From: Methanocella conradii HZ254
GTDB lineage: Archaea > Halobacteriota > Methanocellia > Methanocellales > Methanocellaceae
Length of the DNA stretch: 32,000 nt
Direction of reading: 5' to 3'
NCBI RefSeq assembly: GCF_000251105.1
Contig: NC_017034.1
Coordinates: 505,350 to 537,349 of the forward strand
The position numbers were made by a program, and so were the translations under genes. Below, in pieces: positions 14,314-18,020 of this stretch (within the stretch, counting starts at the first letter, position 1; each line of letters starts with the position of its first letter). The notes under the pieces are model-generated. The model was not told the origin of the DNA, searched no databases, and saw nothing but the letters and a program-made list of their open reading frames with translations.

Positions 14314-14437
14314 TTTTGGCGGCCAAAGCGGCGGGGAACCACCCGGACCCACACCGAACCCGGAAGTTAAGCCCGCCCACGTACCAGGGAGTACTCGGGT
14401 ACGCGAGTCCCCGGAAAACCTGGAACGCCGCCAAACC
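14314..14437 (+). rRNA. rrf: 5S ribosomal RNA
   Basis: The terminal helix pairs TTTGGCGGC (14315-14323) with GCCGCCAAA (14427-14435). Internal conserved blocks are CCGAACCCGGAAGTTAAGCCCGCC and GAGTACT. Confidence 0.9.
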
Positions 14438-14469: not shown

Positions 14470-15024
14470 TTATTTATTGTATATCCCCTTATTTTCAATC
14501 GTCCACGTAGTTGTAATTTTTACCTTATAGGTACCATTTGGATAACTCCGATCCTCAAACCTCGTCTCAACATTAGGTGATTCCCATTTTTTCCCGACGT
14601 CTAGAGGGATGGTTTCATTGTTATAAGATAATATTATTGTACCATTATGGTTTGTTCCAATTATTTTTGCCCCTGATTCTAGTTGATAAGGATATTCATA
14701 TATTCCGCTTATATTTAAATCCCTCCACATTCCCTCAGGCATGTCGTGGGAATGATAGAAACCATACAATATTTTGAGGCTATTGTTATTTTCTACATAT
14801 TTTCCTGCACTGTCATACTCAACAATAGGGGCTGGCACGGCTTCTCTTATATACTCAAAATAACCTTCGACCACTACACCGTGATCCCAATGAATTTCCT
14901 CCACGGCAATATATTTATTAGTTGGTAATTCATTCTGTTTATTATCGCCCACTATACAACCACCAAATAAAATCGTGCACGTTAATAAAATAAAAAATAT
15001 AACTTCCAATGATGCCTTTACCAT
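14470..15024 (-). CDS. Hypothetical secreted protein or lipoprotein (AT-rich block)
   Basis: 184 aa. The N-terminal hydrophobic segment ends in the lipobox-like LFGGC. GGTGAT lies a few nt upstream of the ATG, and the gene starts 22 nt after the upstream gene's stop, so the two look like an operon. Codon usage is visibly AT-rich compared with the flanks. No family recognised. Confidence 0.6.
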   Translation of the reverse strand: MVKASLEVIFFILLTCTILFGGCIVGDNKQNELPTNKYIAVEEIHWDHGVVVEGYFEYIREAVPAPIVEYDSAGKYVENNNSLKILYGFYHSHDMPEGMWRDLNISGIYEYPYQLESGAKIIGTNHNGTIILSYNNETIPLDVGKKWESPNVETRFEDRSYPNGTYKVKITTTWTIENKGIYNK

Positions 15025-15046
15025 CTAATCACCATTCATATGTTTA

Positions 15047-16039
15047 TCAAGGATGTGGCGGAGGGGAGTATCTTGGATCATATCTCGTTATGTATATATT
15101 TCCATAATACCCGTACAGGTCCCTGTAGTAATAATTCGCTACATTATCCGTGTAATATTCAAATATATGCTCGTTGTTAGGCAGATTCAACATTGACCCG
15201 GATAGGTCATAGGCATGGAAGTCCCTTACATACTTCCACGAGTTGACCATGCCAGGTCTAGGCTCTCCGTCCTCGTAATATTTTTCAAGTGCAATATCGA
15301 CATCTTTTATGTGCTCAGCTCTAGGTAGTGTAAATGTCTTGACATATGCAGTGTTCGTATCCAAGTCATATACACAGTATTCCACTCTATTGTAATTGCC
15401 ATTACCGTCTATGCCTACTGGTCTGACATAGATCATAAAATCGTGGATCGAGGGGAAATAGCACCAGTCTATCCATGGATATGCAAATGCTTTACTATAA
15501 ATTGTGAATGTTATAGTATTATCGTATCTCGTCATCTGGATACAATTTTCAGCATCACCATCCCCCCACTGGTGCATTACAAATTCTTCTTTGCCATTGT
15601 TCTCCAGATCGTATAACCAATCGACAACGCCATCTACAAACCATGCTCTTGGTCCACCATCTTTATTACCGAATCCGATATAGGTATTCGACCAGTGTGG
15701 ATCATATACCCTTGTCGGCGTAGTACTTATTGACATACTGCTTACATTACCTCTACTATACGTGTCATTATATATAAACGGTCTAGTGGCTTCTCTATAC
15801 GTTGGTTTTATATTATTCTCCCCAGAACTTTTATATTCATTATACGGCGGGAGTTTATCGGATTTACCAGTAAGGTAATCCCTAATCGCCTTTACGAGTT
15901 CCGCGTGTTCACCATACCCTGAATCTTTATCTGCCAATCCATCTATCCGGGATCGTGCACCAGCCATTCCGGGCGCTGTTATCGCTAGTATGAAAATAGC
16001 CAATATGAACAGCGCTCCAAGCTTTATATTAGTCTTCAT
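15047..16039 (-). CDS. Hypothetical secreted protein, Tyr/Asn/Asp-rich (AT-rich block)
   Basis: 330 aa. The signal-peptide-like N-terminus is MKTNIKLGALFILAIFILAITAPGMAGA and the C-terminus is YDPRYSPPPHP. No family recognised. It is preceded by leader cassette copy A. Confidence 0.65.
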   Translation of the reverse strand: MKTNIKLGALFILAIFILAITAPGMAGARSRIDGLADKDSGYGEHAELVKAIRDYLTGKSDKLPPYNEYKSSGENNIKPTYREATRPFIYNDTYSRGNVSSMSISTTPTRVYDPHWSNTYIGFGNKDGGPRAWFVDGVVDWLYDLENNGKEEFVMHQWGDGDAENCIQMTRYDNTITFTIYSKAFAYPWIDWCYFPSIHDFMIYVRPVGIDGNGNYNRVEYCVYDLDTNTAYVKTFTLPRAEHIKDVDIALEKYYEDGEPRPGMVNSWKYVRDFHAYDLSGSMLNLPNNEHIFEYYTDNVANYYYRDLYGYYGNIYITRYDPRYSPPPHP

Positions 16040-16256
16040 TCAATTCCTCCCTTACTAGCGCCGCATCGGGGAGGCTCAAACAAGGCTTTATCTATGATAA
16101 AGTCTAACTTCTCATTGCCTTCGGGTTCCTGGGCCGGTCTTCTCTGGACGGACGGCCGGACCCAGGATTAGACGACGCTCACTATACAAGCTATTACCTA
16201 CCAATATTTATAATTTCTATCACGAACTGCTAACTGTGAAAATAAGACGTTAAAAG
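16040..16256 (-). promoter_or_regulatory. Promoter plus structured 5' leader cassette, copy A
   Basis: Aligns along its whole length with 17245-17462. Read on the minus strand, the elements in order are: TTTTCACAGTTAGCAGTTCGTGA, then the TATA box AAATTATAAATAT (plus 16204-16216), then a hairpin (plus 16128-16166), then the conserved CCCGAAGGCAATGAG, then the hairpin CCTCCC/GGGAGG (plus 16046-16074) that occludes the SD, then the ATG at 16039. Confidence 0.6.
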
Positions 16257-16300
16257 CTGAAAAGATGTACAGATAGCGATAACTAAAAAACAATTACAAA

Positions 16301-16416
16301 TTTATCGGCAAAAGTGGCGATTTTTCGACCACACCGAACCCGAAAGTTAAGCCCGCCAACGATCCATCGAGTACTAAGGTATGCGAGTCCTTGGGAAAAC
16401 GGAACGCCGCCAAACC
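16301..16416 (+). pseudogene. Degenerate second 5S rRNA copy (5S-like pseudogene or orphan)
   Basis: Collinear with the 5S gene at 14314-14437. Identical blocks are CACACCGAACCCG, AAGTTAAGCCCGCC, GAGTACT, GCGAGTCC and GGAACGCCGCCAAACCA. Several helices are disrupted without compensation: helix I is TTATCGGC against GCCGCCAA; ACTAA replaces the ACTCG that pairs with CGAGT; and the helix II/III region is shortened. Confidence 0.6.
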
Positions 16417-16496
16417 AACCAAAAACAAAAAAACACATCTGAAATAAATTTTACAATTGGGACAATAGATTCCTCCAGTCATATACCTGAAAAAGA

Positions 16497-16898
16497 CTAT
16501 ATTGGCGATGTGGACAAGTTCGCATTATCGATATCGATTACCAGTTCATTCCTTCCGTCAACGATCGCGTAAGCTTCTATTTTTTTGCTTGAGCCGTCAA
16601 ATTTAAACCGGTATATCGTGTTTAGTTTTATAGTTTCATTTGCCGATGGGGGAGAACTGTCCTCACCAGTACTACCGGAAATGACATCTAAGCCCTTAAT
16701 TTCCTTTGCTGAGCCAAAATCCACACATCTGATATTGAGATAAGTCCCACTTGCGTCGCTGGTCTTATTTGCTATGAATGCCGGCGGAATATATACGCTG
16801 CCGTGTCCCGCGAGCCAGGCATTTACCGTATAAACAATTAATATGAACAGTATAAACAGTAAGGTAGCGCATGCCATCATTTTAATATCTACTTTCAT
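16497..16898 (-). CDS. Hypothetical membrane-anchored or secreted protein (AT-rich block)
   Basis: 133 aa with the N-terminal hydrophobic segment ACATLLFILFILIVYTVNAWLA. The SD-like AGGTGAGG lies directly upstream of the ATG. No family recognised. Confidence 0.55.
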   Translation of the reverse strand: MKVDIKMMACATLLFILFILIVYTVNAWLAGHGSVYIPPAFIANKTSDASGTYLNIRCVDFGSAKEIKGLDVISGSTGEDSSPPSANETIKLNTIYRFKFDGSSKKIEAYAIVDGRNELVIDIDNANLSTSPI

Positions 16899-17001
16899 AA
16901 CCTCACCTATATGTTACGATTGTATGATCCATAAAAATAAAAACGTAGAAGTCATTTATATTCATTTATTTCCGCTACTTCTCCGGTCATTGCATCAATC
17001 G

Positions 17002-17244
17002 TTACACTTCCTCCATGATATCGTCTTTAGGCTCGCCGAGAACATCTACGATCCAGGCGACTTTTTGCTTTTCATCCGGTGTGTATATGACGTTTAGCGT
17101 TGCATCAGCTCTGGCAACAGAAATGTTATCAAATTGGGCAGATGCGATCGTTATGGCTTTATCTTCAGTTGCGAAAGCTTCGGGGATGCCTGTTACTCCT
17201 AATAGCATGTAAAAAAATAAAATCGTCACTATTCTTTTCGTCAT
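17002..17244 (-). CDS. Hypothetical small secreted protein (AT-rich block)
   Basis: 80 aa with the signal-peptide-like MTKRIVTILFFYMLLGVTGIPEAFA. It is preceded by leader cassette copy B. Confidence 0.5.
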   Translation of the reverse strand: MTKRIVTILFFYMLLGVTGIPEAFATEDKAITIASAQFDNISVARADATLNVIYTPDEKQKVAWIVDVLGEPKDDIMEEV

Positions 17245-17462
17245 TTTCTTCTCCCCTCTATAGCGCCGCTTTCAGGGGAGCTCATAGGCTGAATTTATAT
17301 ATGAAATCCCAACCCCTCATTGCCTTTGGGCACCTGTGTCCGGTCTTCTTTCCAGGGGCCGGACTCCGGGATTTGACGGCGCTTGTATAGCAAATTATTA
17401 CTAAGCAATATATTTATAATTTCTCTCATGAACTGTTAACTGTGAAAATAAGATGTTAAAAG
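17245..17462 (-). promoter_or_regulatory. Promoter plus structured 5' leader cassette, copy B
   Basis: Paralogue of 16040-16256. It has the same order of conserved blocks and the same TATA box (plus about 17409-23). Its hairpin core is GTCCGG/CCGGAC (17338-17364). Its SD-occluding hairpin is CTCCCCT/AGGGGAG (17251-17280), with the loop core GCGGCGCTA conserved. Confidence 0.6.
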
Positions 17463-17546
17463 AGATATGCCACAAGGCTTAAGCCCCGCATCCAATCCTG
17501 TCAATCGCAAACTTCTTATCGAATCCTCTTATAATTTCATACAGCT

Positions 17547-18020
17547 ATGGATTTAAACGATATAACGAGAGACATCGAGCGCATCGGGCTTCCGAAGCGC
17601 CCTCGCGAGAGAATGCCTGACTTATCAGTAAAATATGGCAAGGTCAAGGCTTTAATATTTAGATTGCTGGCGTTATCGCTATTGGCGGTCATAGCGGCCT
17701 TCAGCATCCTCGTATTATCGCACTACAGGTCCTCCATAATGGCGCTCATCGTTTTAGTTTATGTGGTTCTGGGAGGGCTCCTGGCGTATAAGCTCTTTAG
17801 CCTTACGTATACTGGGTGGGTCTACACATTTTTCCTCTCATTGGCCGGCGTGATCCTGCCTTTGCTCGCCCTCGCCACCAGGGGCTTTTCCAATCCAGCG
17901 TTGACGATGGGGGCGGCGGCCGTATTCATTTTATCAGTCATATCGGCCGCCCTGCTGTGGTGGGCCAAAGACCTCCTGGGGATAAAAAGCTATAAGGATG
18001 TCTTCACGCCTTACGCCTGA
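17547..18020 (+). CDS. Hypothetical integral membrane protein
   Basis: 157 aa. A charged N-terminus is followed by about four hydrophobic helices. The TATA-like CTTATAATTT lies about 20 nt upstream. No family recognised. Confidence 0.55.
   Translation: MDLNDITRDIERIGLPKRPRERMPDLSVKYGKVKALIFRLLALSLLAVIAAFSILVLSHYRSSIMALIVLVYVVLGGLLAYKLFSLTYTGWVYTFFLSLAGVILPLLALATRGFSNPALTMGAAAVFILSVISAALLWWAKDLLGIKSYKDVFTPYA

Follow-up and report, generated by a model that had tools for sequence, protein, structure and literature searches.

A repeated promoter and 5' leader cassette of Methanocella looks like an RNA control element that also marks where secreted-protein operons are swapped between strains and species

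Background

In Methanocella conradii HZ254, a stretch of 32,000 nucleotides (contig NC_017034.1, positions 505,350 to 537,349; called the window below, with positions counted from its first letter) carries two adjacent minus-strand operons, Mtc_0519-Mtc_0518 and Mtc_0521-Mtc_0520, each of which is preceded by a copy of one and the same cassette of promoter and 5' leader. Why should operons for unrelated secreted proteins (here called cargo) share their regulatory DNA? The original prediction, made from the sequence alone, answered with a shared control module, either an RNA element or a transcription-factor site, whose similarity ends at the start codons. Here, we followed up this idea by comparing the cassettes with related loci, public transcript data and predicted RNA folds. 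In the reading that we favour, and which we regard as moderately probable, a conserved promoter together with a structured leader that sequesters the Shine-Dalgarno (SD) sequence places interchangeable secreted-protein operons under common control and, with copies of the 5S rRNA gene, bounds the units of a recombining array.

To our knowledge, few structured cis-regulatory RNAs are known in archaea, and no description of this leader or of the array was found in Rfam or in the literature searched. A leader with a clear SD-sequestering platform could be a new riboregulator class in methanogens that are key to rice fields. A non-coding regulatory module that doubles as a recombination boundary would, in concrete terms, explain how secreted and surface proteins can turn over rapidly and pass between species with no enzymes of mobile elements.

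Results and discussion

Two copies of one cassette before unrelated cargo

Cassette A (16040..16256, minus strand; covariance model score 165 bits) comprises the promoter and the ~145-nt 5' leader of the Mtc_0519-Mtc_0518 operon, and cassette B (17245..17462, minus strand; 132 bits) the promoter and leader of the Mtc_0521-Mtc_0520 operon. Aligned over their full length they are 73.9% identical across about 234 nt (blastn, E 1.3e-29), with the similarity fading just past the ATGs at 16039 and 17244, so the predicted repeat is real. Inspection of the sequence also bore out the predicted common order of elements, being in both copies an upstream block, a transcription factor B recognition element (BRE) with TATA box, a GC hairpin, a conserved block and an SD hairpin. 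Exactly two occurrences of TTTCACAGTTARCAGTTC and two of CCCRAAGGCAATGAG were counted in the window, for chance expectations of 0.01 and 0.26, and conservation is highest in the promoter block (92% identity over 53 nt, 16204-16256 and 17410-17462). Homology of cassette A with the 5S-adjacent cassettes of other genomes extends to about 16300; cassette B is the terminal unit of the array, without a 5S gene upstream.

The proteins downstream are indeed unrelated, both for the first genes of the two operons (330 and 80 aa, BLASTP E 1.5) and for the second ones (184 and 133 aa, no similarity, E 1.6), and what they share is, as predicted, the nature of their N-termini, with a signal peptide, lipobox or transmembrane segment in 4/4.

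The cassette belongs to a family whose copies mostly alternate with 5S rRNA genes

At least 11 close copies of the cassette, found in M. conradii, M. paludicola and a metagenome, drive at least eight unrelated cargo sets, which speaks for the shared control module and against the simple two-copy, recent segmental duplication that the original prediction had named as its counterpart. This count covers the window, 120 kb of related loci and a metagenome scan, and is a lower bound. The covariance model recovered exactly the listed copies and none further in the window or the 120 kb of related loci; a diverged copy at locus L023 was not recovered by it. Scanning the metagenome with a pattern derived from 8 copies gave 3 further real copies and 4 chance matches. 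Two of these real copies lie in an array syntenic for gatD-gatE with 5S between them and the third follows aspS, with no 5S in the 3.5 kb examined of that contig. The conserved-block pattern had no match in viral contigs, and in a set of genome contigs, not including the HZ254 genome, it gave 16 chance matches in unrelated bacteria. So far, the leader family is confined to Methanocella.

Most copies are found at a single site, a low-GC, hypervariable stretch between gatE and the rRNA operon, where the repeating unit consists of a 5S rRNA gene or remnant, a divergent promoter with the ~145-nt leader, and 2-3 unrelated signal-peptide proteins. In HZ254 the two cassettes lie within a 3-kb stretch of about 40% GC (flanks 55-63% GC) that adjoins the 16S-tRNA-Ala-23S-5S operon on one side and the gene next to gatE on the other, in the order 5S, cargo A, cassette A, 5S remnant, cargo B, cassette B, with gatE and gatD beyond. 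The 5S rRNA of the rRNA operon (14315..14436, plus strand) forms the downstream boundary of the array. A second, degenerate 5S copy (16301..16415, plus strand; RF00001, 38.5 bits against a cutoff of 38) runs divergently from cassette A, 45 nt upstream of it, and separates the two units; with a 5' third that has diverged or been lost, this copy is probably a remnant.

Better preserved counterparts of this remnant exist in related genomes. In M. paludicola SANAE (locus L030), whose units beside the rRNA operon are interspersed with three intact 5S genes, they are intact and score 86 bits, and in an M. conradii metagenome-assembled genome (MAG; locus L031) one counterpart scores 85.9 bits with only 80% identity to the operon 5S. 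SANAE holds two cassettes, one before a near-identical cargo A and the other before an unrelated set of 42 + 296 + 239 aa. The MAG has four units in the stretch from gatE to the rRNA operon, with a 5S or part of one behind each and cargo sets of 240+278+133, 94+209+133, 412+222 and 378+167 aa. All that the M. paludicola genome paper (PMC3146512) mentions of this arrangement is the presence of two extra 5S genes, for which the array now accounts.

Cargo changes between genomes at the leader and 5S borders

Comparison of M. conradii with M. paludicola (window 14470-16039 against L030 10001-11627) shows the cargo to be better conserved than its cassette. The 330-aa and 184-aa genes of cargo A are 95.6% and 98.0% identical, against 95.2% for 16S rRNA, 88.6% for 23S rRNA, 90.8% for 5S rRNA and 73.9% for the cassette before cargo A. 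The identity jumps at about 16053, at the SD, and the other edge falls between the Mtc_0518 stop codon and the operon 5S, which thus also delimits the cargo-A exchange. Cargo genes at 96-98% identity against 88.6% for 23S rRNA point to a recent inter-species transfer between thermophilic and mesophilic Methanocella. The claim that the regulatory DNA is better conserved than the genes it drives stands as a pattern for A and B, but its cause is replacement of cargo rather than differential decay, since between species cargo A is 96-98% identical and its cassette 74%.

Within M. conradii, cassette B with its flank is 97.7% and cassette A 87-98% identical between HZ254 and the MAG; in place of cargo A, the interval between the ATG and the operon 5S holds 7.2 kb with three other cargo sets in the MAG. 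The arrangements of HZ254 and SANAE are each confirmed by independent data, namely by RNA-seq contigs in the first case and, in the second, by a metagenome contig that is identical to the unit. No integrase, transposase or recombinase was found among the open reading frames (ORFs) of the window scanned against Pfam, nor in the examined flanks of related arrays. The locus has the features of a replacement-type flexible island, namely the same site, strain-variable content, low GC and breakpoints in conserved flanks. With 96-98% identity in cargo A against 74% in its cassette, the leader and the 5S appear to serve as homology arms between which cargo is exchanged, and homologous recombination through these arms is the simplest reading.

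The leader is transcribed with both operons

In public read sets SRR6014205-210, we found short transcript-shaped contigs that are 100% identical to the window. Those of operon B start at 17373-17375 and end at about 16428 in the T-run TTTTTTTGTTTTT (16421..16433, minus strand), a likely archaeal terminator, while those of operon A start at 16174 (two contigs), 16214 and 16142 and extend into Mtc_0518. They cover 129-135 nt (one contig 175 nt) upstream of the ATGs and thereby place the leader inside the 5' untranslated region (UTR) of both mRNAs, which argues against the proposition, raised along with the original prediction, that the region is absent from the mRNAs. The contig of gatD-gatE stops at the start of Mtc_0522 and leaves the promoter DNA uncovered.

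The sequence upstream of the leader fits an archaeal BRE/TATA promoter. In cassette A the BRE-like ATAGAAA and TATA box TTATAAAT occupy 16206..16220 (minus strand; TATA 16213-16206), from whose spacing a transcription start is predicted at about 16183; in cassette B the BRE-like GAGAGAAA and TATA box TTATAAAT occupy 17412..17426 (minus strand; TATA 17419-17412), with a start predicted, likewise from spacing, at about 17387. The contig 5' ends are 32-39 nt away from the 3' end of the TATA box, which in such promoters stands about 26 nt upstream of the start, and 9-12 nt downstream of the starts predicted here. This gap is attributed to loss of 5' coverage, because TATA spacing places the starts some 9-12 nt upstream of the contig ends and one contig reaches 16214.

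Common to all copies are the motif TCAYAGTT, a GAnAGAA BRE-like stretch and an AT-rich TATA. The tandem CAGTT repeat that had been predicted as a factor binding site is present in the M. conradii copies, but its second CAGTT is restricted to that species, leaving as the sole part kept in all copies the motif TCAYAGTT (TCACAGTT at 16232..16239 in cassette A and at 17438..17445 in cassette B, minus strand), a candidate factor site. In the 5S-adjacent units the homology runs on to the 5' end of the 5S gene, so that the ~150-bp spacer between 5S and cassette is probably a bidirectional promoter region.

In published RNA-seq, the first genes of both operons are 2.5-3.2-fold higher in syntrophic coculture (PMC6046458 supplement), with log2 fold changes of +1.34 for Mtc_0519 (p 2e-22) and +1.67 for Mtc_0521 (p 2e-11). 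For the second genes the same supplement gives +1.12 for Mtc_0518 (p 1.75e-13) and about 0 for Mtc_0520 (p 0.97). The first genes of both operons, responding to syntrophic growth, are testable targets.

The leader has a conserved fold with two crossing helices

Left unaided on the 11-copy alignment, RNAalifold predicted a closing helix P1, in which AGCGYYGU pairs with a strand some 115 nt further downstream, a GC hairpin P2 and a GCC-NRAA-GGC mini-hairpin P2a. In cassette A (all positions on the minus strand), the 5' strand of P1 is AGCGUCGU at 16172..16179 and its 3' strand CGGCGCU at 16057..16063; the GC-rich P2 with its conserved loop ending in AGAGAAGA occupies 16128..16166; and the conserved block CCCGAAGGCAAUGAG at 16111..16125 holds P2a (GCC/GGC in most copies) and the invariant AAGGCAAU. 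An AU-rich hairpin P3 (16083..16105; three pairs with double changes) follows, then the anti-SD CCUCCC (16069..16074), which pairs with the SD GGGAGG (16046..16051) ahead of the start codon at 16039-16037. Cassette B has the corresponding elements: P1 strands AGCGCCGU (17376..17383) and CGGCGCU (17262..17268), both drawn as in A from alignment fold and pair counts, P2 (17333..17370; single-sequence and alignment fold), conserved block CCCAAAGGCAAUGAG (17316..17330; motif scan), a P3 unlike that of A in sequence (17287..17314), anti-SD CUCCCC (17275..17280) and the SD GGGGAG (17251..17256) with which it covaries, before the start codon at 17244-17242.

With P3 added by hand to the RNAalifold model before pairs were counted, 90.5% of cells are paired, against 30-42% with slid partners. 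Six pairs are changed on both sides, and the covariation score was matched by 8/500 shuffles. Within P1, column pair 18/134 reads CG in 4, UG in 4 and UA in 2 copies, and column pair 19/133 CG in 9 and UA in 1. The unpaired AGAAGA of the P2 loop and AAGGCAAU are invariant or nearly so. The helix between the SD and the anti-SD, which lies upstream of the P1 3' strand, has 6-8 bp in 11/11 copies, and its two sides change in step (CCUCCC/GGGAGG, CUCCCC/GGGGAG and, in locus L040, CCUCCU/AGGAGG). Being both transcribed and covarying in its helices, the leader agrees with the RNA-element option of the original prediction.

Since the 3' strand of P1 sits in the loop of the anti-SD:SD hairpin, the two helices cross, and P1 and SD sequestration would have to compete or form a pseudoknot. 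By forced-pair folding, closing P1 or closing the SD helix gives energies that differ by no more than about 1 kcal/mol in 5/11 copies, including both window copies (-47.8 versus -47.8, and -46.2 versus -47.1). This near-equal predicted stability of crossing helices suggests a translational switch.

The layout is kept in diverged leaders before other genes of the Mtc_0519 family (L023, L040/L041 and L042), of which the P2 stems are wholly different (CAUGAGACACAGC / GCUGUGUCUCAUG, CAUGGUCCCGA / UCGGGAACCAUG and CAUAAGGCAC / GUGCCUUAUG, as read from these sequences). Despite these altered stems, the loop AGAAG and the GCC/GGC hairpin persist in L023, L040 and L042. Covariance models of Rfam 15, run over 15900-17600 at E up to 10, gave the 5S match only and none on either leader; the related leaders of other genomes had no Rfam match either.

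Three other interpretations of the leader were tried and dropped. An upstream ORF starting at the AUG in AAGGCAAUGAG has AUA in one copy and varies from 3 to 12 codons in length. In the 11 close copies, pairing of the conserved block with the anti-SD as an SD mimic did not exceed shuffled controls, and it is strong only in the distant L041 and L042 leaders. For a kink-turn/L7Ae site in the P2 loop, the stem-adjacent bases do not fit by inspection. Separately, in L042 (113-176) the P2a/junction segment AUUGAGGCAUG and CAUGCCUCAAU are perfect reverse complements of each other, and the latter also pairs with the SD AUUGAGG, giving a clean three-segment switch layout that is absent from the window copies.

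Weighing the explanations

Several observations weigh against a switch of this kind. The contig 5' ends (16174; 17373-17375) fall within or just after the 5' strand of P1, which could not form if they were the true starts. The single-sequence stability of the leaders is unremarkable (z -1.2 and -1.9). The alignment is shallow, with an effective sequence number of 1.95, so relatedness inflates the covariation counts, and mismatches occur in the P2 of copy MAG_4 and the P1 of copy Mg_b. Between A and B it is the promoter block (92%) and not the leader that is better conserved, which gene conversion or promoter-level control could explain. The expression change is modest, and no ligand or regulator is known. 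Moreover, the read sets are most likely those of the strand-specific RNA-seq study by Liu and Lu 2018 (GSE103596), a link that we infer, as the Sequence Read Archive run ids gave no match when looked up in papers.

Control at the promoter, by a shared transcription-factor regulon in which TCAYAGTT and adjacent bases act as activator site and the leader is a passenger with an ordinary SD hairpin, would account for the near-identity of the promoter block, the retention of TCAYAGTT and GAnAGAA-TATA in all copies and the joint rise of both first genes in coculture; a FilR1/HVO_A0261-type regulator gene moreover adjoins a diverged copy in one genome. Yet the blastn matches of copies Mg_a and Mg_c cover the leader alone, without the promoter block, the leader helices covary around invariant loop and junction bases, and distant relatives keep the P2/P2a/anti-SD architecture with different sequences, so we consider this account on its own rather unlikely, while noting that it is compatible with leader control and does not exclude it. 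That gene (L023, 8796-9578), of the winged-helix type, belongs to another M. conradii assembly, where it stands immediately upstream of the diverged cassette and might encode its cognate regulator.

A plain tandem segmental duplication of 5S, operon and upstream region, followed by gene decay and gene conversion and leaving a repeat without special function, is improbable in our view. Two adjacent units that are each followed by a 5S or 5S remnant, a promoter block whose near-identity could stem from gene conversion, and Mtc_0521 as a deletion remnant are what it would predict, but the cargo proteins of different units are dissimilar, the module stands before at least eight cargo sets in three genomes and one metagenome, including loci without 5S in the sequence examined, its helices carry compensatory changes, and between species the cassette is less conserved than the cargo, whereas decay of duplicated genes would give the reverse. 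Still less credible, to the point that we would hardly count on it, is a site-specific mobile system (an integron-like cassette array or an element resembling a miniature inverted-repeat transposable element) with the repeat as its recombination site and the RNA-like features as incidental. The precise replacement of cargo between repeat boundaries and the low-GC array at a conserved chromosomal site recall such systems; against this stand the lack of integrase, transposase or recombinase genes in the window and the related-array flanks examined, the lack of terminal inverted repeats or target duplications, the promoter that each unit has of its own and breakpoints that lie inside extended homology (leader, 5S), as homologous recombination predicts.

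A proposed mechanism and its relation to known systems

For the favoured reading of a common promoter and leader, we propose that an archaeal BRE/TATA promoter with upstream TCAYAGTT and a structured ~145-nt 5' UTR form one Methanocella-specific module. Its RNA would fold into a closing P1, a long GC-rich P2 with purine-rich loop, the GCC-NRAA-GGC hairpin followed by AAGGCAAU, and the AU-rich P3, and its CCUCCC anti-SD would pair with the ribosome-binding site in competition, or in a pseudoknot, with P1. Some signal, be it a ligand, a protein or temperature, could shift this balance and so set the output of secreted cargo. The module and the flanking 5S copies would at the same time be the conserved boundaries of the hypervariable array beside the rRNA operon, in which homologous recombination in leader and 5S may replace whole cargo operons, and as a result an incoming operon would inherit the same promoter and leader control. 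A bolder version is conceivable, although we rate it as possible rather than probable: an integrase-free 'plug-and-play' array combining a new archaeal riboregulator class with spare 5S genes as portable homology arms, in which any recombined secreted-protein operon, even one from another species, would immediately be transcribed under one translational switch.

Translational riboswitches and SD-sequestering leaders include pseudoknot types such as SAM-II and preQ1-II. The Methanocella leader is like them in being a 5' UTR element whose junction and loop bases are conserved and whose stems covary, and in having an anti-SD:SD expression platform with two competing pairings of near-equal predicted energy. 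It differs in having no Rfam match or known ligand, in being archaeal and so far confined to Methanocella, and in preceding unrelated secreted proteins rather than a metabolic pathway. The cargo hints at no metabolite.

As for the array, it resembles replacement-type flexible genomic islands in its fixed site from gatE to the rRNA operon, strain-variable content, low GC and sharp flank breakpoints; unlike in these, the flanks are internal repeats (leader and 5S copies) between every unit, making the array modular, and each swapped unit joins a ready-made promoter and leader. Integron arrays are similar as tandem, unrelated short gene cassettes separated by a recurring element, whereas the Methanocella array is without integrase or attC, has a promoter (TATA) and leader per unit and has 5S rRNA genes as spacers. 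In the orphan toxin/immunity arrays of contact-dependent growth inhibition (CDI)/Rhs loci, conserved upstream homology is used to swap variable modules. Here too, conserved sequence stands 5' of variable pairs of a secreted protein and a small partner, and there is evidence that modules move between genomes, but the conserved part is non-coding, and the cargo, one member of which is glutamic peptidase-like, has no demonstrated toxin/immunity role. Some eukaryotes have tandem repeats of 5S rDNA with a spliced leader gene, which, by analogy only, likewise alternate 5S genes with a unit that gives mRNAs a common 5' leader; in Methanocella each gene carries its leader already in the DNA, without evidence of trans-splicing or homology.

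Cargo proteins and neighbouring genes

All first cargo genes encode signal peptides. BLASTP revealed no hidden homology among the cargo sets of different units, except for the paralogous first genes of MAG_3 and MAG_4, and Pfam searches of the cargo proteins gave CarboxypepD_reg and DUF4901 only, in a few proteins. Mtc_0519 (15047..16039, minus strand; 330 aa with signal peptide) has 38 representative relatives, among which H156, E164, D225, D248 and E252 are invariant. Its AlphaFold model (pLDDT 84, pTM 0.81) is closest to scytalidoglutamic peptidase (E 9.5e-7, TM-score 0.67 on the target), neprosin and Bacillus subtilis YncM, by which predicted fold Mtc_0519 resembles glutamic peptidases (eqolisin, neprosin, YncM). 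The lipoprotein Mtc_0518 (14470..15024, minus strand; 184 aa, lipobox FGGC) could be its partner or inhibitor. In cargo B, the 80-aa Mtc_0521 (17002..17244, minus strand) is a deletion chimera that, relative to the MAG, lacks 1.2 kb, so that the 5' part of a 240-aa gene now runs into the 3' part of a 278-aa DUF4901 gene; it is followed by Mtc_0520 (16497..16898, minus strand; 133 aa).

Some cargo genes of the related arrays are broken. In M. paludicola the Mtc_0519 orthologue (L030 10001-10993, MCP_1521/1522) is split into ORFs of 191 and 129 aa and the first gene of the other unit (L030 7461-8496) into ORFs of 42 and 296 aa, and these look like pseudogenes. An Mtc_0519-type gene on metagenome contig L033 is likewise in fragments.

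Next to the array, Mtc_0522 (17547-18020, plus strand), a 157-aa membrane protein without Pfam match, adjoins gatE in all arrays; its transcript contig ends within a few nt of the start codon, and its mRNA may be leaderless.

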